Shown piece by piece: positions 12,469 through 54,950 of a stretch of DNA of 64,000 bases. The notes beneath the pieces were generated by a model. It made no database searches. It had not been told where the DNA came from and saw only the letters and a program-made list of their open reading frames with translations. The stretch is taken from assembly GCF_050920415.1 (NCBI RefSeq), contig NZ_CP169309.1. One strand, 5' to 3'. The translations under genes were made by a program, and so were the position numbers. The stretch is from Escherichia coli. Lineage in GTDB: Bacteria > Pseudomonadota > Gammaproteobacteria > Enterobacterales > Enterobacteriaceae. The first letter of the stretch is position 1; each line of letters begins with the position of its first letter.

Positions 12469-13084
12469 TTTTTATCAAAAAAAACATAAAAAAATGACCG
12501 GTTAGACTGTTAACAACAACCAGGTTTTCTACTGATATAACTGGTTACATTTAACGCCACGTTCACTCTTTTGCATCAACGAGCTAACGTGGCTTTTTTG
12601 GGTAAGCAGAAAATAAGTCAGCAGTGAAAATATCAGGCTGCTAAAAATCGGCGCTAAGAACCATAATCATCTGTTAAAACATTATTAAAAATGTCAATGG
12701 GTGGTTTTTGTTGTGTAAATGTCACTTATTAAAAGAGTGTCTGTTTTTGGACTTAAATATCATAAACTTGCAATGGCATCATTTGCCAAGTAAATAAATA
12801 TGCTGTGCGCGAACATGCTCAATATGTGATCTGAAGCACGCTTTATCGCCAGTGTTTACGCGTTATTTACAGTTTTTCATGATCGAACAGCGTTAGCAGA
12901 AAAGTCGCAATTGTATGCACTGGAAAAATATTTAAACATTTATTCACCTTTTGGCTACTTATTGTTTGAAATCACGGGGGCGCACCGTATAATTTGACCG
13001 CTTTTTGATGCTTGACTCTAAGCCTTAAAGAAAGTTTTATACGACACGCGGCATACCTCGAAGGGAGCAGGAGTGAAAAACGTG

Positions 13085-14289
<1,205 letters not shown>

Positions 14290-20168: not shown

Positions 20169-20867
20169 ATGTCTTTTAAAACGTCTTTTGAAGGTGTCCA
20201 ACCGGTTGTGATGACCGATCGCGCCACCTTTATCCGCCGTGCTTATATGCATCTGGCTGGGGCAGTTGTCGGGTTCATCATTCTCAGCGCGCTGTTTATC
20301 TTTAGTGGGCTTGGCAAAATGATGCTTAGGGTGCTGATGAACAGTGGTCAGTTTGGTTGGCTGGTGGTGCTGGGTGCTTTTATTCTGGTCAGCATGCTGG
20401 CGACTCGTCTGGCAGATAATGTGGAGTCTAATCAGACCCAACTGATTGGACTGGGGATATACGTACTGGCAGAAGCGTTAATTTTTGCACCTTTACTGAC
20501 ACTGGCAGCGTATATTAATCCAGCAATTATTGGCGCGGCGGGCATCACCACAGCACTGCTTGTGGGGGGTCTGACATTCACTGCCTTCACGACCAAAAAA
20601 GATTTCTCTTTCATGCGTTCGTTTTTAACCATGGCGGGCTTTATCGCTTTCGGTGCCATTATCGCGAGCATTTTTATGGGATTCTCACTGGGCGTCTGGT
20701 TCTCGGCGGCAATGGTGCTGTTGTGTGCTGGCTTCGTGCTGTACGACACGTCTAATATTATTCATCATTATCCTACCGATCGTCCGGCAGGCGCGGCGCT
20801 ACATCTCTTCGCCTCTATCGCTACCATGTTCTGGTATGTTCTGCGCATTTTCATGTCCCGCGATTAA
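20169..20867 (+). CDS. BI-1/YccA-family (Bax inhibitor-1-like) inner membrane protein
   Basis: 232 aa with about 7 predicted TM helices and a charged C-terminal tail; preceded by a very AT-rich promoter region; located between atpC and glmU, which I recall as adjacent in K-12. Confidence 0.6.
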   Translation: MSFKTSFEGVQPVVMTDRATFIRRAYMHLAGAVVGFIILSALFIFSGLGKMMLRVLMNSGQFGWLVVLGAFILVSMLATRLADNVESNQTQLIGLGIYVLAEALIFAPLLTLAAYINPAIIGAAGITTALLVGGLTFTAFTTKKDFSFMRSFLTMAGFIAFGAIIASIFMGFSLGVWFSAAMVLLCAGFVLYDTSNIIHHYPTDRPAGAALHLFASIATMFWYVLRIFMSRD

Positions 20868-20880
20868 CCCTGCTTGTATA

Positions 20881-20907
20881 AACCAGCGAAATTATTCGCT
20901 GGTTTTC
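20881..20907 (+). terminator. Rho-independent terminator after the BI-1-family gene
   Basis: ACCAGCGAA-ATT-ATTCGCTGGT hairpin followed by TTTTCCCGTTTATTT. Confidence 0.7.
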
Positions 20908-21142
20908 CCGTTTATTTATTGATCGAAATAAGAGCAAAAACATCCACCTGACGCTTAAATGAAGGTACTGCCTTAATTTTCTGCAGACAAAAGGCGTGAC
21001 GATGGTCGAAAATGGCACTTTCGTCAGCGGGGATAATCCGTTATTGAACAATTTATCCTCTGTCCATTTCACGATGAAAAAAATGTAGTTTTTTCAAGGT
21101 GAAGCGGTTTAAATTCGTTCTCAAATTACAGTCAGGACGCGT

Positions 21143-26161: not shown

Positions 26162-27893
26162 GCATTGCATAAGGATAGGCGAATTATGGTTACGACCAGA
26201 ATAGCGGTTGGTCTGACGGCAGGGACATGTCTCGTTTTCTCGCAAAGCCTGATGGCCGAGGTCAGCGTATTTAATCCGGCGCTGCTGGAAATAGACCATC
26301 AATCCGGAGTCGATATTCGCCAGTTTAACAAAGCGAATCACATACCTCCCGGCGCCTACAGTGTTGATATTTTTATCAATGGCAAAATGTTCGAGCGTCA
26401 GGATGTCACTTTTGTTCAGGATAACCCTGATGCCGATCTGCACGCCTGCTTTGTCGCGATTAAAAAAAAGCTGACTTCCTTTGGTGTAAAAGTTGACGCG
26501 CTGAAATCGCTCAATAAGGTGGATGACAATGCCTGTATTGACCCTGCACCACGCATTGAAGGCTCAACCTGGCAACTGGACGGCGATAAGCTGCAACTGA
26601 ATATCACCATTCCCCAGATCTATATGGATGCGATGGCTTACGATTACATAAGCCCCACGCGTTGGGATGAGGGAATTAACGCACTGACTATCAACTACGA
26701 TTTTTCCGGTTCACATACTCTGCGCTCGGATTACAACTCACAGGAGACCGATACCAGTTATCTCAACCTGCGTAACGGACTCAATATTGGGCCGTGGCGA
26801 CTCCGCAATTACAGCACCTTGAACACCACCGATGGTCGTGCGGAATACAACTCTATCAGTACCTGGATACAACGTGATATTGCTGCGTTAAGAAGCCAGA
26901 TTATGATTGGCGATACGTGGACGGCGAGCGATATTTTCGACAGCACGCAAATCCGTGGTGCACGACTTTATACTGATAAAGATATGTTACCCGCCAGCCA
27001 GAATGGCTTTGCGCCTGTGGTTCGTGGGATTGCAAAATCCAACGCCACCGTCATCATTCGACAGAACGGCTACGTAATTTATCAGTCAGCCGTGCCACAA
27101 GGTGCCTTTGAAATCACCGACCTCAATACTGCCAGCTCAGGCGGCGACCTGGACGTGACTATCAAGGAAGAAGATGGTAGTGAACAACGATTCACCCAGC
27201 CTTATGCGTCGCTGGCAATCCTCAAACGTGAAGGTCAGACCGATGTAGATGTTAGCGTGGGGGAGCTGCGCGATGAAGATGGTTTTACTCCTGACGTGCT
27301 TCAGGCACAGATCCTTCATGGCTTGCCCCACGGTTTTACCTTGTATGGTGGCGTACAGGCTGCTGAAAAGTATGGTTCTGTTGCTTTGGGGGTAGGTAAA
27401 GATCTCGGTTCTCTGGGAGCCATCTCTTTAGATGCGACACATGCCAGAGCGAAATTTGCAGATGATGATACGGAAACGGGTCAGTCATATCGTTTTCTGT
27501 ATTCAAAACGTTTTGACGATACAGACACCAGCTTACGCCTGGTTGGCTATCGTTACTCCACCGAAGGCTACTATACCCTCAATGAATGGGCATCCCGGCA
27601 AAATAGTCCAGAAGATTTCTGGCAAACCGGAAACCGTCGCAGCCGTGTGGAAGGAACGTTAACGCAATCGCTGGGCAGAGATTATGGCAACTTATACCTG
27701 ACATTAAGCCGCCAGCAATATTGGCACACAGATGATGTCGAACGATTAATCCAATTTGGTTACAGCAGTAGCTGGAAGCGACTCTCGTGGAACGTCTCGT
27801 GGAGTTATTCCAATACGGCCCGGCAAGGGACGAGTAATAGTTATGCCAGTGATAACACCAGCGAACAAATCTACATGCTCTCTGGATTTGCCC

Positions 27894-28799
27894 CTATATT
27901 TCCAGACATCTGTTATCACTTAACCCATTACAAGCCCGCTGCCGCAGATATTCCCGTGGCGAGCGATAACCCAGCGCACTATGCGGATGCCATTCGTTAT
28001 AATGCTCGAACGCCTCTGCAAGGTTCTTTGCTGCCGTTAACCCGTCTGGTTTGGGCATGATACTGATGTAGTCACGCTTTATCGTTTTCACGAAGCTCTC
28101 TGCTATTCCGTTACTCTCCGGACTCCGCACCGCCGTGTTCTTCGGTTCAAGTCCCAACATCCGGGCGAACTGGCGTGTTTCATTAGCCCGGTAGCATGAA
28201 CCATTATCCGTCAGCCACTCCACTGGAGACGACGGAAGATCGTTGCCGAAGCGGCGTTCCACCGCTCCCAGCATGACGTCCTGTACTGTTTCACTGTTGA
28301 AGCCGCCAGTAGTCACCGCCCAGTGCAGTGCCTCACGATCACAGCAGTCCAGCGCGAACGTGACACGCAGTCTCTCTCCGTTATCACAGCAGAACTCGAA
28401 CCCGTCAGAGCACCATCGCTGATTGCTTTCTTTCACGGCCACTCTGCCTGTATGTGCCCGTTTCGATGGCGGTACAGCAGGTTTTCGCTCAAGCAACAGC
28501 GCATTCTGGCGCATGATCCGGTAAACACGTTTGGCATTGATTGCAGGCATACCATCAAGTTCTGCCTGTCTGCGAAGCAGCGCCCATACCCGACGATAAC
28601 CATACGTGGGCAGCTCTCCGATAACATGGTGTATACGGAGAAGCACATCCGTATCATCAGTGTGACGACTGCGGCGGCCATCCATCCAGTCATCGGTTCG
28701 TCTGAGAATGACGTGCAACTGCGCACGCGACACCCGGAGACAACGGCTGACTAAGCTTACTCCCCATCCCCGGGCAATAAGGGCGCGTGCGCTATCCAC
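27894..28799 (-). CDS. insD: IS2 transposase OrfB (InsD)
   Basis: 301 aa ORF inside IS2, DDE integrase-core fold. Confidence 0.9.
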
Positions 28800-29122
28800 T
28801 TTTTTGCCCGTCCATATTCAACGGCTTCTTTGAGGAGTTCATTTTCCATCGTTTTCTTGCCGAGCAGGCGCTGGAGTTCTTTAATCTGCTTCATGGCGGC
28901 AGCAAGTTCAGAGGCAGGAACAACCTGTTCTCCGGCGGCGACAGCAGTAAGACTTCCTTCCTGGTATTGCTTACGCCAGAGAAATAACTGGCTGGCTGCT
29001 ACACCATGTTGCCGGGCAACGAGGGAGACCGTCATCCCCGGTTCAAAGCTCTGCTGAACAATTGCGATCTTTTCCTGTGTGGTACGCCGTCTGCGTTTCT
29101 CCGGCCCTAAGACATCAATCAT
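28757..29122 (-). CDS. insC: IS2 transposase OrfA (InsC)
   Basis: 121 aa HTH protein starting [13 protein letters not shown]; overlaps insD in the -1 frame. Confidence 0.9.
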
Positions 29123-43375: not shown

Positions 43376-44041
43376 TTAACGCGCTATATCCCAGCCGCGA
43401 GCCTTCCAGAGCGCAGGCAGTTGCGCCAGCTCGGTAAAGGTGGTGACTTTCGGGTGAACGATCGGCTTATTGTGCGGGTCAGCGCAGAAGTAAAACACTT
43501 CCATACCGGCATCTATCCCTGACTGCGCACCGGCGCTGGAGTCATCGACCAGAATGCAGTTTTCAACGTTCACATTCATCGCTTTTGCCGCATGGAACAT
43601 TAATGCCGGATCGGGCTTCCAACGCTGGATATCGTAGCCGCTGAACAGTTTTTCCGGGAAGTAGTGCAGCATATTGAGCTTACCAAGCGAATGCTGCATT
43701 TTGCTCACCGGGCCATTAGAAACCACGCACATCGGCACGTTAACGCTCGCCAGCAATTCGTTCGCTCCCGCGATGACCTCTAGTTCGCTATCAAACAGGC
43801 GGGTGACTTCTGCGCGGTAAACGTGCTCTGCATCGGCCTGGACCATCGTCACGTCCTGCTCTTTACTGATGATATCGATGATTTCATAGAGTTTTACGCC
43901 TTTAAAACGGGTAAAAATCTCTTCCAGGTCTACGTTAATGCCAAATTCCCTGAACATCGTGACATAGGCGCGAGAGCAAATGACCTCGCTATCGACCAGC
44001 GTACCATCGCAGTCGAAAAATACCGCTTCTATCTGGGACAT
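43376..44041 (-). CDS. yieH: HAD-superfamily sugar phosphatase
   Basis: 221 aa, N-terminal DxD motif FFDCDGTLVDSE. Confidence 0.85.
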   Translation of the reverse strand: MSQIEAVFFDCDGTLVDSEVICSRAYVTMFREFGINVDLEEIFTRFKGVKLYEIIDIISKEQDVTMVQADAEHVYRAEVTRLFDSELEVIAGANELLASVNVPMCVVSNGPVSKMQHSLGKLNMLHYFPEKLFSGYDIQRWKPDPALMFHAAKAMNVNVENCILVDDSSAGAQSGIDAGMEVFYFCADPHNKPIVHPKVTTFTELAQLPALWKARGWDIAR

Positions 44042-44208
44042 GTCTTTCCTTTATCATTAGTTTAACGTTTTCGTCATGCAAATTTGCACAACGCAATCGT
44101 TGCCGTATAAGCAAATACAATGAAAAAAAGTTAACTTCAGCCGTCCATATTGTCTCATTTTGGTATACGATAGCGACGGATTTTCCCTCCTTAGTTCGGA
44201 AATAGATA

Positions 44209-45546
44209 ATGAGTCAACAACACACAACCCAGGCTTCTGGTCAGGGGATGCTGGAACGCGTGTTTAAACTGCGCGAACATGGCACGACGGCTCGGACCGA
44301 AGTGATCGCCGGTTTTACCACCTTCCTGACGATGGTTTACATCGTTTTTGTTAACCCGCAAATTCTTGGCGTTGCTGGCATGGACACCAGCGCCGTCTTC
44401 GTCACCACTTGTCTGATTGCTGCATTTGGCAGCATTCTGATGGGACTGTTTGCTAATCTGCCAGTTGCACTGGCACCAGCAATGGGCCTGAACGCATTCT
44501 TCGCTTTTGTGGTTGTACAGGCGATGGGCTTGCCGTGGCAGGTCGGGATGGGCGCAATCTTCTGGGGCGCGATGGGTCTATTGTTACTGACAGTTTTCCG
44601 CATTCGCTACTGGATGATTGCTAATATTCCGGTAAGTCTGCGTGTGGGCATCACCAGCGGTATCGGCCTGTTCATTGGCATGATGGGGCTGAAAAACGCG
44701 GGCGTGATTGTCGCGAATCCCGAAACGCTGGTGAGCATCGGTAACCTGACTTCTCACAGCGTGCTGCTGGGTATCCTCGGCTTCTTCATCATCGCTATTC
44801 TGGCCTCGCGCAATATTCACGCGGCGGTGCTGGTTTCTATTGTGGTGACGACGCTGCTGGGCTGGATGCTGGGTGATGTGCACTACAACGGCATCGTGTC
44901 TGCGCCACCGAGCGTAATGACAGTAGTGGGTCATGTCGATTTAGCCGGTTCGTTTAATCTCGGTTTGGCAGGGGTGATTTTCTCTTTCATGCTGGTCAAC
45001 CTGTTTGACTCCTCCGGTACGCTGATTGGCGTGACCGATAAAGCAGGGCTGGCGGATGAGAAAGGTAAATTCCCGCGCATGAAGCAGGCGCTGTATGTCG
45101 ACAGTATCTCTTCCGTGACAGGTTCGTTTATCGGTACTTCTTCTGTTACAGCGTATATTGAGTCCTCTTCCGGCGTTTCTGTTGGTGGTCGCACCGGTCT
45201 GACGGCAGTTGTTGTCGGCTTGCTGTTCCTGCTGGTTATCTTCCTGTCGCCGCTGGCGGGGATGGTGCCTGGCTACGCTGCAGCTGGTGCGTTGATCTAC
45301 GTTGGTGTGCTGATGACCTCAAGTCTTGCTCGCGTGAATTGGCAGGATCTTACCGAATCCGTTCCAGCGTTTATTACCGCCGTGATGATGCCGTTCAGCT
45401 TCTCGATTACCGAAGGTATCGCACTGGGCTTTATCTCCTACTGCGTGATGAAAATCGGCACCGGACGTCTGCGCGATCTTAGCCCGTGTGTGGTTGTGGT
45501 GGCGCTGCTGTTTATCCTGAAGATTGTGTTTATCGACGCTCACTAA
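44209..45546 (+). CDS. adeP: Adenine permease (NCS2/AzgA family)
   Basis: 445 aa polytopic transporter; position between yieH and chrR. Confidence 0.85.
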   Translation: MSQQHTTQASGQGMLERVFKLREHGTTARTEVIAGFTTFLTMVYIVFVNPQILGVAGMDTSAVFVTTCLIAAFGSILMGLFANLPVALAPAMGLNAFFAFVVVQAMGLPWQVGMGAIFWGAMGLLLLTVFRIRYWMIANIPVSLRVGITSGIGLFIGMMGLKNAGVIVANPETLVSIGNLTSHSVLLGILGFFIIAILASRNIHAAVLVSIVVTTLLGWMLGDVHYNGIVSAPPSVMTVVGHVDLAGSFNLGLAGVIFSFMLVNLFDSSGTLIGVTDKAGLADEKGKFPRMKQALYVDSISSVTGSFIGTSSVTAYIESSSGVSVGGRTGLTAVVVGLLFLLVIFLSPLAGMVPGYAAAGALIYVGVLMTSSLARVNWQDLTESVPAFITAVMMPFSFSITEGIALGFISYCVMKIGTGRLRDLSPCVVVVALLFILKIVFIDAH

Positions 45547-45599
45547 AATCGATAGCGCGTTAAAAACCCGCCATGCATGATTGCTGGCGGGTTTTTTAT

Positions 45600-46166
45600 T
45601 TAGATCTTAACTCGCTGAATAAACTCACCAAATGCGGTTAATTGCCCGGTCAGGTGGTCAAGCGTACCCTGATCAATCACTTCTCCGGTTTGCGGATCAA
45701 CTTTGTTCTGAATCACGCCGCCCATAAATTCAGGCTTGTTCATCACCATTGCATCGAGAAAAACCAGAATCTGGCGCAGATGATACTGACAGCGCGCGCC
45801 GCCAATCACGCCCATTGAGCTGGTCTGAATCAACACCGGTTTACCAGCCAGAGGTTGATCCGGCAGGCGGGAAAGCCAGTCGATGGCATTTTTCAGCCCG
45901 CCCGGTACCGAGTAGTTATATTCCGGCGTGACGATCACCACACCGTCAGCCTGACGGATCTGCTCCGCCATAGCTTCTACCGTTGCGGGAAAACCTTCTT
46001 CCTGCTGTACATCAGCGTCATACAGGGGAATGTCGGCAATGGAAGGTAATGCATTGATTTCCATGCTAGCAGGAGCAATTTTCGGCAGGGTACGTGCAAC
46101 CATGCCATTAAATGAGCCTTTGCGCAGGCTTCCCAGTAACGTAACCACCTTCAATTTTTCAGACAT
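45600..46166 (-). CDS. chrR: NAD(P)H-dependent FMN reductase / chromate reductase
   Basis: 188 aa flavodoxin-like fold; position matches yieF. Confidence 0.8.
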   Translation of the reverse strand: MSEKLKVVTLLGSLRKGSFNGMVARTLPKIAPASMEINALPSIADIPLYDADVQQEEGFPATVEAMAEQIRQADGVVIVTPEYNYSVPGGLKNAIDWLSRLPDQPLAGKPVLIQTSSMGVIGGARCQYHLRQILVFLDAMVMNKPEFMGGVIQNKVDPQTGEVIDQGTLDHLTGQLTAFGEFIQRVKI

Positions 46167-46187
46167 GATGACTCCTGTGGTTGTCTA

Positions 46188-46949
46188 TCAATTTGGCGAA
46201 AAAGACTTCATGGTAGAGAGTTGGGCAAAACGCATCATCCTGCTGGTAGGATTGTTGGCGCGGCTGTGAATATCCGGCAGGCTTTTCCAGCCGCGTTTGC
46301 CATCTAACTCCCAGACACTGAGCTTTTCAATTGTGGGCGTGACCGCCACGGACCACACCAGCACGTCCTCCGCGTCGCATAACGCTTCTACATGATTTAC
46401 ATGAGCACATTTCAGGCGTCCGGCAATGGGCAGCAGCTGCAGATCGCGCGGATCGTCATTCAAAACATCACCGGTTAGTTTTAGCACGCTTCGGCGCAAC
46501 GTGATGAGTTGCGCCCGCGCTTCGTTAGGATCGTTTTGTTTACTGATCCATAGCGATTCATTGCTGGAAAAGGTGTGGTTATCGAGCGCGTGTGGGCTAT
46601 GAAACCCGCGCGTCGCACGCTGCAGTTCCATATCGAGGCCACATTCACCTTCGGTTGTTAGCGCCACGCCAACCATATTCCCGGCATAGGAAATAGAAAA
46701 CGAGGGCAAATTTTTATCACTGAAAACCGGTTTTCCTTTCGGCAGGGTGACGATTTCCGGTAATTCGCCGATGCCATACAGCATGAACATCAGTTCTGCG
46801 AGTAAACCTCTGGACGCCAGGAAACGGCTTTGACGATGAGGGGGAATATTTCGGGCTTCTTGATGACACTGGGAGGAGAGACGAACAGAAATCAGATGTC
46901 CTTCCGTTAAAATCCCTCGGGCAAAGTGAGTCGCCATTTTTCGCTCCAT
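46188..46949 (-). CDS. yieE: Putative 4-phosphopantetheinyl transferase family protein
   Basis: 253 aa ORF; assignment by position between chrR and yidZ. Confidence 0.6.
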   Translation of the reverse strand: MERKMATHFARGILTEGHLISVRLSSQCHQEARNIPPHRQSRFLASRGLLAELMFMLYGIGELPEIVTLPKGKPVFSDKNLPSFSISYAGNMVGVALTTEGECGLDMELQRATRGFHSPHALDNHTFSSNESLWISKQNDPNEARAQLITLRRSVLKLTGDVLNDDPRDLQLLPIAGRLKCAHVNHVEALCDAEDVLVWSVAVTPTIEKLSVWELDGKRGWKSLPDIHSRANNPTSRMMRFAQLSTMKSFSPN

Positions 46950-47093
46950 GCTTAATGGTCCATTATGAATACAAGAGTAATCATTTACTGGAATGATGGA
47001 CAGACTAAAGCAGCTAAAAGTTCGATTCAGACAATCTTATTACAACTATTTTACATTTTATTGTGAAATAGGGTTGCGTTTCATACGATTCGG

Positions 47094-48050
47094 TTATGCC
47101 ATCGACGCGTAAAGATTTTTAATGGTTTCCCGTAACCAGACGATCTTCGGATTATGGCTGTTCCGTTTATGCCACAGTAGGGTAAAAGGGACTTCCAACT
47201 TTTTTTGCTGGCTTTCGTCAAACGGGAGAGGTAGAGCAACTAACGGCAGTTGGTGGAGTTGATTGTAGTACTGACAGTAGCGTGGTGCGGTCGCCAGTAG
47301 CAGATTGTCGGGCTGCGCTGCCATAAACAGTGACTGCTCGAATTCCGGCAAACTCATAGCAATCGTGCGTTCGCGCCCCAGCTCCTGTAACACATTGTCC
47401 AGCGCCCAGGTATCGCTCTGTTCCCAGCAAATGCTGATATGTGGGTAACGTAAAAAGGTATCCAGATCCCACGCTTCATGCAGTGCTGGATGATCTTTGC
47501 GCAACCAGACGCAGGGCACATCACTAAACAGTACTTCATAATCAATGGCTAATGGCAGCGAACTTAGCAGCTCCCGCGAACGGGGATGGCTTTCGCGACC
47601 GGAAAAACCAATATCCACTTCGCCACGGGTAATCGCATCCAGTGAATCATAATCCCAGTTGCGCAATTTGATCGTCGCCTGGGGGTAACGCTGGTAGATC
47701 TGCTTAGTCAGCGTATTGAACATGATCATCATCAGCGGCGATTCCGCCGCCAGTTCAAACTTAAGACCGCGCGGCGTTTGGTGGTGCGGTTTATCCAGCA
47801 GCAGGTTGCTCATTTGCATCCATTCCGCCAGATTTTGCTCCATGCTGACCATTAGCGGTGTGGGCGACAGGCCCAGCGGTGAGTTCATAAAGAGCGGGTC
47901 GTCAAACCACGCTCTTAACTTTGCCAGAGACTTACTCACCGCTGAAGGCGTCACGTTCATCCGCTTAGCCGCTTTGGTCACGCTGCGTTCCTGCATCAGC
48001 AGTTGCAGGCAGAGCAGTAAATTGAGATCAAGCGTGGTGATGGATTTCTT
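47094..48050 (-). CDS. yidZ: LysR-family transcriptional regulator
   Basis: N-terminal HTH (…[23 protein letters not shown]…); recalled start [13 protein letters not shown] lies 4 codons inside tracked ORF 47094..48062 and overlaps the 3-prime end of mdtL. Confidence 0.85.
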
Positions 48051-49203
48051 CATGAGCGGCAACGGGGCGTCCAGGCGCGACGAACATAATCAGCAACAGG
48101 CTCACTATGCTACAGGCAATCAGAATCCCGATCAGCATATTCCATGCGCCGATACCAACCACCGCTGCCAGCCAAATCCACAGTGACGAACCGCAAACTT
48201 GCGCAATACCTAAGGTCGAGCTGGCAACACCCGCGCGTAATGAAAACGGCCCTAACGCCTGACTCATCGCTACGCCAAAACCTACCGAGAAACCGGCGCA
48301 AATCAGCGTGATACCAAACAGAGAAACCGCATGGGAAGGTGAAACGGCAAGAGTGATACCTGCCGCCAGAAATAACACCTGTGAGGTAATCATCAACGTA
48401 CGTGGCTTAAAGATCCCCAGTGCAAATGGCGTGGAGAATGAAACGGTCATGCTGACCCCTGCGGTCAACGCCATTATGGTGGCGTATTCTCCGCGCTCAA
48501 AACCCATGATTTCCATCAGCAATACCGGCGACGTATTCACGAAGGTGAGGATCACCGAAACGCTGAGGGTGGTGATAACAACACGGCTGAGGAAAAACCG
48601 GTTAAGCAGCGACTCGCTATTTTCTCGTGGTTTGTCAGAAGCTGCGGGGGCGGCAGGGCGCGTTTCTTTTAAAATAAACAAAGACAACATCAGTACTGCG
48701 ATGCCCATCGTTGCCATCGTCCAGAACAGACTCTGCCACGGGAATTTAAGCATAATCAGGTGTCCGAGCACTGGCGCTAACACCGGAATGATGCAGGTAA
48801 TACCGTTGAGTAACGACAGCACTTTTGCCCGACGTCGATCGTCCAGTGTGTCACGTAAAATGGCGAACGCCACCACGTAACAACAGCCTGCGCCCAGCCC
48901 CTGTAGAAATCGTCCTGCAAGAAATAACGTGCTGGTTTCAGCCAGTGAACAAAACACCGAGGCAATAATAAATAGCGCCGCGCCGGGTATGGCGACAGGC
49001 TTTCTCCCTGAACGATCGGCCACTTTACCGGCAAATAACATCGCTGCTGCCATACCTGCCAGATAAACGGAGAACGCAATATGCAACTGCGCTTCGCTGG
49101 CATTGAGATCGGCGGCGATGCGCGGTAAACCAACGAGGTACATATCAATCCCTGCGGGATAAAGTAAAACCAGGGCAAAACTACAAATCAAAAAGCGGGA
49201 CAT
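48028..49203 (-). CDS. mdtL: MFS multidrug efflux transporter
   Basis: 391 aa, 12-TM MFS protein. Confidence 0.9.
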
Positions 49204-49335
49204 GGGCTAAAGCGTCCTGATAGTAAGGTGACGCAAAGCATACGTGGTGAAGGAGAATCAGGCGAGTTGCCATTTGGACATAAGTGATTTCCTGACAGGC
49301 AAGAAGCCAGCTATTTCGCTGGCTTCTTAAACGGA

Positions 49336-50583
49336 TTAGCCAAATTTAGGTAACACATTAAAGACGTTACCGAACCAGCATAAAATTACGGTTATACCAA
49401 AGAGAATGACAATCGCCGGAATAAGATTGCCGCCCCAGACCGTGAACATCTGATTGGGAAATTTCTTGCGAGCTTTGATTGCCAGCACCGCGGGGATAAT
49501 GACTGCCCAGATGGTGGCGCATAGTCCGGCACCGCCGATCCCGTAAATAAAGCCGTTTGGGAAGACGAGATATAACAAAGCAGGTGGCAGGAAGGTTAAC
49601 AGCACGGTTTTGAAACGCCCGCCGTGGGAGTTATCAATCTTAAACAGATCCGCCAGATAATCGAACAACCCCAGTGTGACACCAAAGAACGAACTGGCGA
49701 CAGCTAAGTTAGAGAACACCAGCAGGCAAAACTCGATAATGCCGTGCTGTTTGGTGCCGAGGAACGATTTCACCAGCGAATCAACGTTGCCGCCTGAGGA
49801 GATAATCGCCTTAAAGCTTTCTCGCGGAATATTCCCCATCGTGCAATAGAGCCAGAAGAGATAAATCACCAGCGCCAGCAGCGAACCAAAAACCACACTT
49901 TTGATTAGCTTATCTTTGCGTTTGCCATAGCAAATAATCAGGCTGGGAATATTGCCGTGGAAACCAAATGACGCCAGACACACCGGCAAAGCCATAAAGA
50001 TATACGGGAAATAAGACGTTCCCGCAGTGGTGCTGGTGGCATCGCGCAGAATGGAGTAATCGACCTGGAAGAAGAAAGAACCAAACACGATCACAAAGGA
50101 GATAATCTTCAACCCGAGGAACAACGAGGTAATACGGCTGGCGGCTAACGAGCTTATCCACAATACGCTGGCAACGAAAATGGCTGTGCAGATCCCGACA
50201 ATACGTGGATTAGCGTGATAACCCAAATTCATTGATATCGTTTCACTAATGATCGCACCATTAGCAGAGATATAGGCATAAGTGAGGATATAGAGAACGA
50301 AGGCAACGGTAATACCGCTGATAATGTTCCAGGTGTTACCGATTAAATCTTTGGTGATGGTGTTAAAACTGGAGCCGACGGGATAATTTAAATTTGCTTC
50401 TAATAATAATAACCCGGAATGAAGCATTGAAAACCAGGCAATGATAAGGATAAAGGCACCCCAGAAAAACCAGGCACCGGCAAGATCAACAGGTAAAGCA
50501 AACATACCTCCACCGATTACTGTACCTGCTATAACCATAACACCCCAAAATGCAGAGTGCTTTTTTTCAGCTTGATCAGTCAT
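49336..50583 (-). CDS. tnaB: Low-affinity tryptophan permease
   Basis: 415 aa aromatic amino acid permease downstream of tnaA. Confidence 0.92.
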   Translation of the reverse strand: MTDQAEKKHSAFWGVMVIAGTVIGGGMFALPVDLAGAWFFWGAFILIIAWFSMLHSGLLLLEANLNYPVGSSFNTITKDLIGNTWNIISGITVAFVLYILTYAYISANGAIISETISMNLGYHANPRIVGICTAIFVASVLWISSLAASRITSLFLGLKIISFVIVFGSFFFQVDYSILRDATSTTAGTSYFPYIFMALPVCLASFGFHGNIPSLIICYGKRKDKLIKSVVFGSLLALVIYLFWLYCTMGNIPRESFKAIISSGGNVDSLVKSFLGTKQHGIIEFCLLVFSNLAVASSFFGVTLGLFDYLADLFKIDNSHGGRFKTVLLTFLPPALLYLVFPNGFIYGIGGAGLCATIWAVIIPAVLAIKARKKFPNQMFTVWGGNLIPAIVILFGITVILCWFGNVFNVLPKFG

Positions 50584-50674
50584 GATGCCACCTTTAGAGG
50601 AAGGCTATTTTTGTTATTGAAGATGTAGGGAGTTAGAGTGGCTAACATCCTTATAGCCACTCTGAATGTATTAA

Positions 50675-52090
50675 TTAAACTTCTTTCAGTTTTGCGGTGA
50701 AGTGACGCAATACTTTTGGCTCATAGGTAAAGGTTAAACCTTTAATATTCGCCGCGTTCTCTTTCACATGTTTGAAGGCTTCAATAATGAAGTCCATATG
50801 TGTTTGAGTATATGTTGCGCGCGGAATGGTTAAACGCAGCAGTTCAGCCGGGCATGGCAGTTGTTTACCGGTTTTCGGATCGCGGCCTAACAGGAAAGAG
50901 CCAATTTCTACCGCACGGATACCGGCGACTTTATACAGCTCGCAGGCCAGCGCCTGTGCCGGGAACTGATCTGCCGGGATATGCGGCAACAGTTTACCTG
51001 CATCAACGAATGCCGCGTGACCGCCCGCCTGCTGGCAGACAACGCCAATCTCTTCCAGACCATCAACCAGATACTGTACCTGCGCGATACGATAAGCCAG
51101 CCAGTCCAGATTCATGCCGTCATACAGACCTACCGCCAGACGCTCCATCGCACCGCCTTCCAGGCCGCCATATGTCGGGAAGCCTTCCTGTACCACGCAA
51201 AGGGTTCTGCATTCGGTATACACATCAAAGAAGCTGTCGTCTTTCATGCACAGCAAGCCGCCCATCGGCACCATTGCATCTTTCTTGGCGGACATCGCCA
51301 GCATATCGGCATATTTGTAGGTTTCGCGGGTGATCTGCTCGATGGTCCAGTCTTTGTATTCTGCTTCACGCTGCTTGATGAAATAGGCGTTTTCGGCAAA
51401 GCGTGCGGAGTCCATGACCACCGGAATATCGTATTTCTTCGCGATGCTGTACATCGCTTTTAAGTTTGCCAGTGAAACCGGCTGACCACCTGCGGAGTTA
51501 CTGGTGATGGTTGCAACGATATACGGCACGTTATTCGGGCCAACTTCTTCAATACCGCGTTCTAATCCCTCAAGGTCAAAGTTGCCTTTAAAGTCGTAAC
51601 GCACGCCCGTATCGAAGGCTTCTTTGATATAGACGTTACGCACGGTACAGCCGTTGATCTGGCTATGGCCCTGCGTGGTATCAAAGAAATAGTTAGAGAA
51701 CGCCACCATTTTGCTGCGATCCAGGCCCTTTTCCTGCTCGCGTTTTTTAATCAGAACAGGAATATAGATTTGCTCTGCACCACGGCCCTGGTGAGTCGGA
51801 ATAGTGTATTGATAACCAAAGATATTTTTCACTGACTCGGCTAACGCATAGTAGCTGCGGCTGCCGCTGTAAGCTTCATCGCCGCGCATCATCGCGGCCT
51901 GCATACTCTGCGTCACCGCCCCGGTGCCGCTGTCGGTCAGTAAATCGATAAACACATCTTCGCTATCCAGCAGGAACGGGTTCATACCGGATTTAATAAT
52001 TGCCTCTTCACGGTAAGCGCGAGTCGTACGTTTTACTGGCTCAATAACACGAATGCGGAATGGTTCAGGGAGATGTTTAAAGTTTTCCAT
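50675..52090 (-). CDS. tnaA: Tryptophanase
   Basis: Recalled protein starts [18 protein letters not shown], 5 codons inside tracked ORF 50675..52105; PLP-dependent enzyme. Confidence 0.95.
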
Positions 52091-52310
52091 TACATAATCC
52101 TTCATTTATTTTAATTACAGTGATCCCTGTGAATATGATATTTGCAATATCTATTAATTCGCCAGTTATATATGCCAAGACCATCATTTACTAAAACAAG
52201 TAAATAAATGAGAGACAGCCTTTGCAAAAGGCAAAATTAAGATATAGCAAACAAATAGATCACATTGAATCTAATCGGTTTGGCTCTGGTGATGGCTACA
52301 GAAGGGCAAA

Positions 52311-52385
52311 TCAAGGGCGGTGATCGACAATTTTATTGTCGATATTAAACCATTTTGAGGTCACACATATATGTAAGATATTCAT
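52311..52385 (-). CDS. tnaC: tna operon leader peptide TnaC (TnaL), 24 aa
   Basis: Reverse complement reads ATGAATATCTTACATATATGTGTGACCTCAAAATGGTTTAATATCGACAATAAAATTGTCGATCACCGCCCTTGA (MNILHICVTSKWFNIDNKIVDHRP); about 220 bp upstream of tnaA with a spacer for Rho-dependent attenuation. Confidence 0.9.
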   Translation of the reverse strand: MNILHICVTSKWFNIDNKIVDHRP

Positions 52386-52460
52386 AATGCACTTATCCTC
52401 GAAAGACACGCCGCTACATTATTACACTCAGAATTTTTGTCTATTCTGAAATTGTTTAAA

Positions 52461-52476
52461 TGTGAATCGAATCACA
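52461..52476. promoter_or_regulatory. CRP binding site of the tna promoter
   Basis: TGTGAATCGAATCACA, a near-perfect palindromic CRP site about 80 bp upstream of the tnaC start. Confidence 0.75.
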
Positions 52477-53648
52477 ATCGTTCGGAAAGCAATATTAAAT
52501 GCTTTTTTAAAGATTATAAATTACGTAAGAATTTTAATGTTTAAAAAAGGCTTGAGGAATAACAGGAATACTAACAATAAAGCGAAGCCGCGTCTGACAG
52601 TCAGAATGCGGCTTCGATACAGAAGCTGGAAAATCGAGCTAACTCGTTAATCTATCAGCGATACGTTGCCTTGAAAACATGGCTATGGGCACATTCAAGG
52701 ACACAAAAACCATTTTGTTCACAATGGCTGGTGGAACCACGGTTAAAACCATCACTCTATGAGGGCTTAGGGAAGTTCAGCTTTTATTGCAGATGTTCCC
52801 ATAATGGCAATAGCTTTTGTCAATGAATCGAGCCTCCTGAATAACTGAGCGGGCGATTTTATGCAGCGCGCATAGCTCCTTGATATGAGGCGATAAGCAT
52901 AGTTTTTGCGTACTGACTTGCGCTATAGTCCCCACGTTGCGGCAAAACCGCAACCGGAATTGGCGTTCCGAATTATCACGAGTGTCGGTAGCGATGTTTG
53001 CAGTGCTACTGGCGCGGCCTGCGCTCGCCCCTTCAATGGTGGCTCAGGCAGGGGCTTCGAAAGAAGCGCCGGGTCGTGATAACCGGTACGCCAACCCTGT
53101 CTGGGTCACCACCAGTGAGCCAGGCGTCTCCGGTGGTGGCGTTAACCTGCTTATCACGAAGCGGAGCGTTGCGTATGTGTCCTGTCCCTGAATTTCCCAT
53201 TGCACCAGCCTCCGCCGGAGGTATCTATGAAAATCACCGTAGAACAACCCTCAGCCAGAGAACTAGTCGATCGCTCGCGAGTCCTGGTGCATGTGATGCT
53301 CGAGCATCCTGACGATATCGGCCCGAATTATGCGTTGCTTCTCATCCTCGCCGACCAGCTACAACTATTAAGGGATGCTTTTGAAGAGGATGAGGTCAGA
53401 CGGCTTAGAGATGAGAAATTACCTCAGTAATTCTTACTGCGACCACAGCATCAGGGACAGATGTTGTGGTTGATTCCCCCACCTGCTTTTCCCTGGCTGG
53501 CTCCCCCATATTCTCTGAGGTGAATTCCATGAGCACAGCAATGGCGCGGGTTGAAAGGGCATCCCCCATCTTTCGCTGTTAAAGGTGAATAATGTGGGGG
53601 GAGTCGAGTACCTGTCAGTGTATCCCCCACATATTCCGGGTTCCACCA

Positions 53649-54950
53649 TCATTCCCCCGTATCCGGGAGCCGGATCTGTTCTCCATCGAGCACAATCAGT
53701 TGCTCGCGCAGCAGCTTCTCCAGCCAGCGCGAAAATTTCTTCTCGACGTTAATTCCCTTTGCGCGTAGATCGTCGCGCAAGAGCGCGCGGGTACAAGGCT
53801 TATTCTGGCTGATGCGTTGGTTAATACAGCGCCATAACGCCGTATGGTTGCGGGTGATATGAGGAACGTCGGGTGGTATGCCACTACTCAGTAAGTCATC
53901 GTCAGGTTGCCTAGGCTCGTCATTCAGCACCATTGAGGTCACTGGTTCGCCATCGCTATCGGTATAGATAACGACTTCCTCAAGATCGTAGGCGGTGACC
54001 TCCGGCATCTCCGCATCTTTCATCTTTGTACAACTCAGGGTGATAGCGTTGCGACGTCCCTCGCGCCTGACGTTAAACTCGGCATCCAGCGCAGCCTGAA
54101 AAGCACTTGAACCGCGTGCGCCCCGTTCCTGATCCTTACCCGAATGATGAACGATCATCATCGCTGCGCGCGTATGATACCGAATGGCGTCGCAACCCTA
54201 GATAAATGCGCCCATATCCCGCGCGGTGTTTTCATCTGAATTACCAAAACAGCGGGCCAGCGTATCGAGGATGATCAGCCGTACCGGCATTCCGGTCATG
54301 TTCTGAATGTCCTTTGCCGCCAGGATCACCTGCTCGATGCTTCCTGGAGCGGCTGGAAAGATCGGGCAGTCGACGCGAAACAGGTTATCGAGCGCCATCT
54401 CGTCATTAACGCTGAGTTCCCAGGCGCGGATCCGCCGCGATACACCGGTTCCTCCTTCTCCGGCGATAAACAGCACTGCTCCTTGATTGACTCGCCTTCC
54501 ACCCCATGACGTACCGCTTGCAATATGGCACGCCAGCGATACTGCCAGAAAGGATTTAAAACAGCCGCCGGGGCCGTAAATACTGCACAGCGTCCCGGCG
54601 GGAATAAGTCCTTTCACCAGATAATCCTGACTGGTGTTAAACCCTTCCGAGCCCCGGCGCAGCGGAAGGGTGGTGGTGAGAGTACGGTCTGATGCTGTCA
54701 TAGCTTACGACCTGAGATTTGCAGGAAGCTGCTGGTTGAACACAATCCGGGAAATGGATTCACCGTAGTGACGGTAAAATTCATCCCAGTCGCTCAATGT
54801 GGTGTCTGCAGGGAGAACCACACAGCCCTTCACTACCTCGGCAGCGGCGGTTGCATTCAGCAACCCGGTATTTTTCTCCTGACTGCAATCATTATCGCCA
54901 GCCAGGATAAGGTGGCATTCAGGCCACTGCGCCCGGAAAGCGATGGCCAC
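53649..54950 (-). pseudogene. P4 alpha-like primase/helicase remnant (Toprim + RecA-like/AAA_25 ATPase), 5-prime truncated and broken by in-frame stops
   Basis: Three same-frame ORFs: 54705..54950 (Toprim-like HLILAGDND), 54198..54701 (P-loop GPGGCFKS, Walker B LIILD) and 53649..54161 (HHSGK motif); they are separated by a TAA at 54705..54707 and a TAG at 54198..54200, and no N-terminal primase domain is present. Confidence 0.65.

Follow-up and report, generated by a model that had tools for sequence, protein, structure and literature searches.

The 26-nt overlap of mdtL and yidZ in Escherichia coli and the start codon of yidZ

The genes mdtL and yidZ of Escherichia coli overlap on the same strand. 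The overlap is genuine and ordinary, and it is conserved among enteric genera. We studied it in a stretch of 64,000 nucleotides of the E. coli contig NZ_CP169309.1, referred to here as the window. Judged by sequence conservation, which settles the question, the start codon of yidZ is the ATG at position 48053. The joint explanation that we consider best, with a probability of roughly 90%, comprises the 26-nt overlap, the start at ATG 48053 and, as we infer for the mode of initiation, a translation of yidZ that is independent of a Shine-Dalgarno (SD) sequence. The overlap is already present in the E. coli reference annotation; what is added here is a yidZ gene that lacks an SD sequence and possesses a conserved unstructured start, and that might be a plausible case of re-initiation at a long overlap.

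Results

Geometry of the overlap

The features of the junction are the following:

47094..48053, minus strand: yidZ, encoding a LysR-type transcriptional regulator of 319 aa (extent from the reference annotation and conservation)
48028..49203, minus strand: mdtL, encoding an MFS multidrug efflux transporter of 391 aa
48028..48053, minus strand: same-strand overlap of 26 nt, in which mdtL ends and yidZ begins
48051..48053, minus strand: yidZ start codon ATG (MKKSITT...), invariant across the compared junctions and annotated in K-12 and RefSeq
48028..48030, minus strand: mdtL stop codon TGA, made by the yidZ codons for Leu8 and Asp9 (CTT GAT)
48060..48062, minus strand: in-frame TTG that opens the mechanical yidZ ORF (MPLMKKS...), not the real start
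48024..48083, minus strand: weakly folding stretch of 60 nt centred on the yidZ AUG, without a usable SD sequence

In the program-made ORF list, yidZ appears as an ORF of 322 aa that starts at the TTG (47094..48062, minus strand). The initial annotation had instead placed the start at MKKSITT within the 3' end of mdtL, and the reference annotations, the boundary of conservation at the ATG and the HTH_1 match from residue 10 all agree with this placement. The distance of 23 nt that it gave is right, as the mdtL stop codon begins 23 nt downstream of the first base of the yidZ ATG; the interval 48028-48050, however, drops the ATG and is 3 nt too short.

The minus-strand junction reads ...GCC GCT CAT GAA GAA ATC CAT CAC CAC GCT TGA T.... 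The overlap is thus CAT GAA GAA ATC CAT CAC CAC GCT TGA in the frame of mdtL and ATG AAG AAA TCC ATC ACC ACG CTT GA in that of yidZ, whose ATG is in the +1 frame relative to mdtL. It contains the last eight codons of MdtL and codons 1 to 8 or 9 of YidZ, and it falls in the variable tail of MdtL, past the MFS_1 match that ends at residue 342 of 391. An overlap at this place would come at low cost, as it would affect only a variable cytoplasmic tail of MdtL and those YidZ codons that stand ahead of the HTH domain.

Identity of the two proteins and known annotation

YidZ has been described as a LysR-family regulator of 319 aa with 118 ChIP-exo sites (PMC8464067). The protein encoded in the window is identical to K-12 YidZ in 311 of 319 residues over the full length and matches HTH_1 (PF00126; 51.8 bits, cut-off 26.6; residues 10-66, profile positions 1-57) as well as LysR_substrate (PF03466; 59.9 bits, cut-off 28; residues 112-313). 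MdtL matches MFS_1 (PF07690) with 153.8 bits and shares 389 of 391 residues with its K-12 counterpart.

In K-12 MG1655, mdtL (b3710) is annotated at 3891615..3892790 and yidZ (b3711) at 3892765..3893724, which is the same overlap of 26 nt as in the window, and the gene order tnaB-mdtL-yidZ-yieE is the same as well. The junction itself is identical over a span that reaches from 150 nt ahead of the yidZ ATG to 30 nt past it. The differences from K-12 are only allelic, with approximately 95-96% nucleotide identity around the locus; residue 32 of YidZ, for instance, is Met in the window and Ile in K-12. The PGAP annotation of the near-identical genome NZ_CP169399.1 (strain MFDS1022581) also contains an overlap of exactly 26 nt, with yidZ flanked, as in K-12, by mdtL upstream and yieE downstream. 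Two E. coli genomes that rank among the most divergent by identity have the same overlap. A query of 2.5 kb around the locus had matches in 5,423 of 5,426 complete E. coli genomes.

The identity to K-12 is uneven along the window. It is approximately 97.8% in the rbs-atp part and approximately 95-96% in glmS-pst and tnaC-adeP, drops to approximately 90% within segments of yidZ and adeP, and is just 82% over yieH (43376..52616 for the region around the locus). Most complete E. coli genomes show 90-95% identity in yieE-yidZ-mdtL. This pattern, seen in nucleotide alignments, suggests divergent allele classes or recombination in the region.

Conservation of the overlap

Orthologous loci were collected from one genome per species by a scan with the back-translated YidZ HTH motif KR[MI]NVTPSAVSK. 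The motif lies approximately 90 nt from the junction, which leaves the junction itself unbiased, and the scan samples only reasonably conserved orthologs. It yielded 49 loci with 47 distinct junctions from approximately 11 enterobacterial genera (Escherichia, Citrobacter, Enterobacter, Kluyvera, Leclercia, Lelliottia, Silvania, Huaxiibacter, Yokenella, Salmonella and other Enterobacteriaceae); these are related species, so the counts are not independent.

Wherever the upstream sequence was usable, yidZ contains the end of a long mdtL-like ORF, with an overlap of 32 nt in 41 loci and of 26 nt in the eight others, which belong to Escherichia, Huaxiibacter and one Lelliottia. The two lengths have a simple basis in the codons of YidZ, since the mdtL stop codon is built from invariant leucine codons: CTT GAT (Leu8-Asp9) supplies TGA and CTT AAT (Leu10-Asn11) supplies TAA. 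Escherichia uses the TGA from the Leu8 codon CTT, most other genera the TAA from the Leu10 codon CTT within the LDLN motif of YidZ. Leu10 is encoded by CTT in 40 of 47 junctions, and all seven exceptions already possess the earlier TGA. The unconstrained Leu12-14, by comparison, are encoded by five to six different codons. The apparent "HEE" motif at the C-terminus of MdtL can be explained in the same way, as it is ATGAAGAA read one base earlier; in the two species in which Lys2 of YidZ is encoded by AAA, MdtL has HEK in place of HEE.

The start codon of yidZ

The sequence ATG-AAR-AAR, encoding Met1-Lys2-Lys3, is kept in all 47 distinct junctions. Leu8-Asp9-Leu10-Asn11-Leu12 is equally invariant and residues 8-15 (LDLNLLLC) are nearly so. 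Upstream of the ATG there is no conservation: each of the ten preceding codons encodes four to eight different residues among the 47 junctions, and in-frame stop codons occur there, the nearest at codon -9.

Two other starts have to be weighed against ATG 48053. The gene might begin at the upstream TTG 48062, which would give a protein of 322 aa (MPLMKKS...) and an overlap of 35 nt. This TTG is an in-frame start codon with no stop codon between it and the ATG, and the sole SD-like element, a GGA (-3.0 kcal/mol), ends 7 nt before the TTG and 16 nt before the ATG, so that its spacing is better for the TTG. The pairing of this GGA is, however, no better than the background at random positions of the window (-2.2 +/- 2.4 kcal/mol), and the RBS-spacing analysis that had been proposed as a check is therefore indecisive for yidZ. 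TTG is a weak initiator. Codon -3 is a leucine codon TTG in only six of the 47 junctions, all of them from Escherichia, whereas the other genera have non-start codons for Arg, Gln, Pro or Tyr at this position. The three additional residues are not conserved, and both the K-12 and the PGAP annotation choose the ATG. Taken together, we regard a start at the TTG as very improbable.

The overlap might also be an annotation error, with yidZ beginning only past the mdtL stop codon, for example at Met20 (LLMQERS), and with no overlap at all. Long same-strand overlaps in prokaryotic annotations often go back to mispredicted start sites. More than 80% of overlaps are shorter than 30 bp, and most of them measure 1 or 4 nt (PMC12548453). 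However, the HTH_1 domain opens at residue 10 of YidZ, the codon of which (profile position 1) begins 2 nt past the mdtL stop codon, and a start at Met20, within the first helix, would truncate it. Since HTH_1 begins at residue 10, a start outside mdtL is excluded. Met20 is also the next in-frame ATG after 48053, no in-frame ATG, GTG or TTG being present between the two, and such a late start would leave the invariant MKK and the nearly invariant residues 8-15 outside of the protein. A start at Met20 is thus even more improbable than one at the TTG, to the point of being barely conceivable.

No direct experimental start-site or N-terminal data for YidZ were found in the publications searched, and the TRAINSPOTTER and Salmonella riboproteogenomics supplements list none of yidZ, mdtL, tnaA, ravA, phoU and mnmE.

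Over-extended mechanical ORFs

We transferred the PGAP annotation to the window and, for each annotated start, followed the reading frame upstream. The mechanical ORF is longer than the gene in 12 of 51 intact annotated genes:

rbsD: 12 nt longer, opened by ATG
ravA: 24 nt longer, opened by TTG
phoU: 18 nt longer, opened by TTG
tnaA: 15 nt longer, opened by ATG
mnmE: 45 nt longer, opened by GTG
others: atpI 12 nt, yieE 12 nt, yidZ 9 nt, tnaC 24 nt and three hypothetical genes

The first five had been named in the initial annotation, and in all five the mechanical ORF indeed extends beyond the start given by PGAP and in K-12. The curated K-12 proteins, named beforehand as a check, back the short forms of these five genes (TnaA 471, MnmE 454, RavA 498, PhoU 241 and RbsD 139 aa) and have the short lengths for AtpI (126 aa) and YieE (249 aa) as well. 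Several of the K-12 records are beyond their first version (NP_418164.4, NP_418202.4, NP_418204.2), in line with past revisions. The ribosome binding sites point in the same direction. The annotated starts of the five genes are preceded by SD pairings of -4.3 to -6.9 kcal/mol that end 5-12 nt upstream, while the extended starts have pairings of -2.5 kcal/mol or weaker; in tnaA, the AAGGA sits within the putative extension. Protein chains in the PDB begin at the short forms for TnaA (MENFKH, 2c44), RavA (MAHPH, 6q7l) and MnmE (MSDND, 9hip), and structural homologs of RbsD and PhoU align from the short start, although the starts of PDB chains largely mirror the annotation and are weak as independent evidence.

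The only over-extended ORF in which the SD pairing does not favor the annotated start is atpI (13073..13087). Here, a GTG 12 nt upstream has a pairing of -7.6 kcal/mol that ends at -5, and the annotated ATG one of -6.9 kcal/mol that ends at -11.

The over-extended ORFs are artefacts of the rule that takes the first ATG, GTG or TTG after a stop codon. Because an in-frame start precedes an in-frame stop approximately half of the time in random sequence with three start and three stop codons, the observed rate of over-extension is expected from the rule and carries no biological signal. A track of longest ORFs overstates the 5' ends of approximately one quarter of the genes in the window, and in the case of YidZ it would add three spurious N-terminal residues. 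The initial view that these start sites matter mainly for the accuracy of annotation holds.

Shine-Dalgarno pairing and RNA structure at the yidZ start

Within 20 nt upstream of either candidate start of yidZ, the GGA is the only pairing to the anti-SD sequence. In the other loci the duplex energies range from +1.2 to -4.0 kcal/mol, with the exception of one locus (L036) at -6.5 kcal/mol. Hence yidZ has no functional SD sequence in approximately 11 genera, one locus excepted.

The 60-nt stretch on the yidZ AUG folds weakly, with a mean of -5.8 kcal/mol in 45 loci versus approximately -15 kcal/mol for stretches of this length within +/-400 nt; it ranks second among 81 positions and belongs to the weakest-folding 10% in 41 of the 45 loci, although this low predicted structure may partly reflect a local base composition that is set by the coding sequence. 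In the single sequence of the window, a region of 110 nt around the AUG is also less structured than its shuffled versions (z = +1.38), 186 of 200 of which fold at least as well.

Two further candidates were considered. A hairpin that masks the yidZ start was rejected, and coupling by RNA unfolding is argued against, because the start region is weakly structured. A programmed +1 frameshift that would fuse MdtL to YidZ was judged unlikely from the sequence: there is no SD-like stimulator upstream, and GCU UGA (UCU UAA in other genera) bars the P-site tRNA from re-pairing in the +1 frame. A consensus scan between mdtL and yidZ revealed promoter-like and terminator-like sites at no more than chance frequency.

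Other features of the window

The window corresponds essentially to the final 64 kb of the NZ_CP169399.1 chromosome, from which it differs only in the site of an IS2 element and in a few single bases (blastn). In the window, the IS2 copy (1331 bp, 27883..29213) splits the fimbrial usher gene lpfC-O113 into the ORF fragments 26165..28060 and 29079..30044. NZ_CP169399.1 has an undamaged lpfC, and there IS2 disrupts a gene for a pentapeptide-repeat 'type III effector' that is uninterrupted in the window (36360..38879, 839 aa).

An island of approximately 7 kb between tnaC and mnmE (52386..59537) is absent from K-12. It contains a frameshifted integrase (57998..59217), a retron St85-family effector (56710..57672) and reverse transcriptase (55775..56710), an Rfam msr RNA (57837..57906) adjoining STnc400 (57710..57834, probably the msd part), remnants of a toprim/RepA helicase, a C4 antisense RNA (53032..53116) with its a1b1 target (52923..52974) and an EFASI RNA (55042..55172). 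The island resembles a degraded P4-like element lying at the integration hot spot at the 3' end of mnmE.

Between atpC and glmU (20169..21059), where K-12 has only an intergenic spacer of 352 nt, the window contains a gene of the Bax inhibitor-1/YccA family, which encodes 232 aa and matches Pfam Bax1-I with 114 bits, as well as the sRNA STnc410 (20902..21059, minus strand, 187 bits). At 35954..43375, between phoU and yieH, the cbrBC-yieKL-bglHBFG block of K-12 is replaced by a block with two pentapeptide-repeat genes (EspX-like effector family) and an ORF of 801 aa without a Pfam match (40834..43239). Further same-strand overlaps in the window are those of ravA/viaA (7 nt), pstC/pstA (1 nt) and the retron effector and reverse transcriptase (1 nt).

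Discussion

The yidZ AUG lies in a conserved patch of weak predicted structure, and the codons after it (AAG AAA) are A-rich. With no functional SD sequence, the most likely mechanism is therefore SD-independent initiation at an accessible AUG. There are two routes by which ribosomes might arrive at this start. Ribosomes that end translation at the mdtL stop codon might re-initiate 23-29 nt upstream of it, which would be a translational coupling by scanning, or free 30S subunits might initiate at the yidZ AUG directly.

Whether re-initiation contributes to the translation of yidZ is, on this model, an evenly balanced question. Coupling has been shown at a distance of -38 nt for the coat and lysis genes of phage fr, where the start nearest to the stop codon is used (PMC12548453), and the yidZ ATG is nearer to the mdtL stop codon than the TTG is. 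However, the efficiency of coupling drops faster with growing overlap than with growing spacing, so that re-initiation at -26 or -32 nt may be inefficient (PMC12548453). That yidZ translation strictly depends on ribosomes which move back by 23-29 nt from the mdtL stop codon, with the level of YidZ, a broadly binding regulator, set by the translation of MdtL, appears rather doubtful to us. If it were true, the overlap of 26 or 32 nt would have been kept since the AUG thereby stays within the range of backward scanning.

It is also possible that yidZ starts at ATG 48053 and is translated independently of mdtL, by free 30S subunits on the unstructured A-rich region, with the overlap as a neutral by-product of genome compaction. 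We consider this somewhat more credible than a strict dependence, although still short of even odds. There is no inhibitory structure that ribosomes would have to unfold, and the weakening of coupling at longer overlaps fits this possibility as well. According to PMC7043885, accessible start regions can support initiation in the absence of an SD sequence, and start selection in E. coli stays correct without SD pairing. On the other hand, ribosomes that translate mdtL to its end would cover the yidZ start as they pass over the final 26 nt, there is no SD sequence to draw free subunits, and an overlap of at most 32 nt in 49 species fits a limit on scanning distance. The preferred reading, an SD-independent initiation at ATG 48053 within the overlap, is common to both routes. 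The lack of an SD sequence and the conserved unstructured start make yidZ a good natural model in which to examine SD-independent translation, or translation driven by re-initiation, at an unusually long overlap.

Another long same-strand overlap of two real genes is annotated in the window, that of yidD/rnpA (62878..62914); it concerns a different gene pair and is longer than that of mdtL and yidZ (37 versus 26 nt). With translationally coupled pairs, such as coat-lysis of phage fr (-38 nt) and bacterial pairs at -4 or -1 nt, mdtL/yidZ shares the co-directional arrangement and a downstream start that lies inside the upstream ORF near its stop codon. The downstream gene of such pairs has no SD sequence of its own, which likewise applies to yidZ. 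In contrast, the overlap of 26 or 32 nt is far longer than the usual -4 or -1 nt, and coupling is only putative here. Unlike in pairs that are coupled by RNA unfolding, no inhibitory hairpin is predicted at the start of yidZ.
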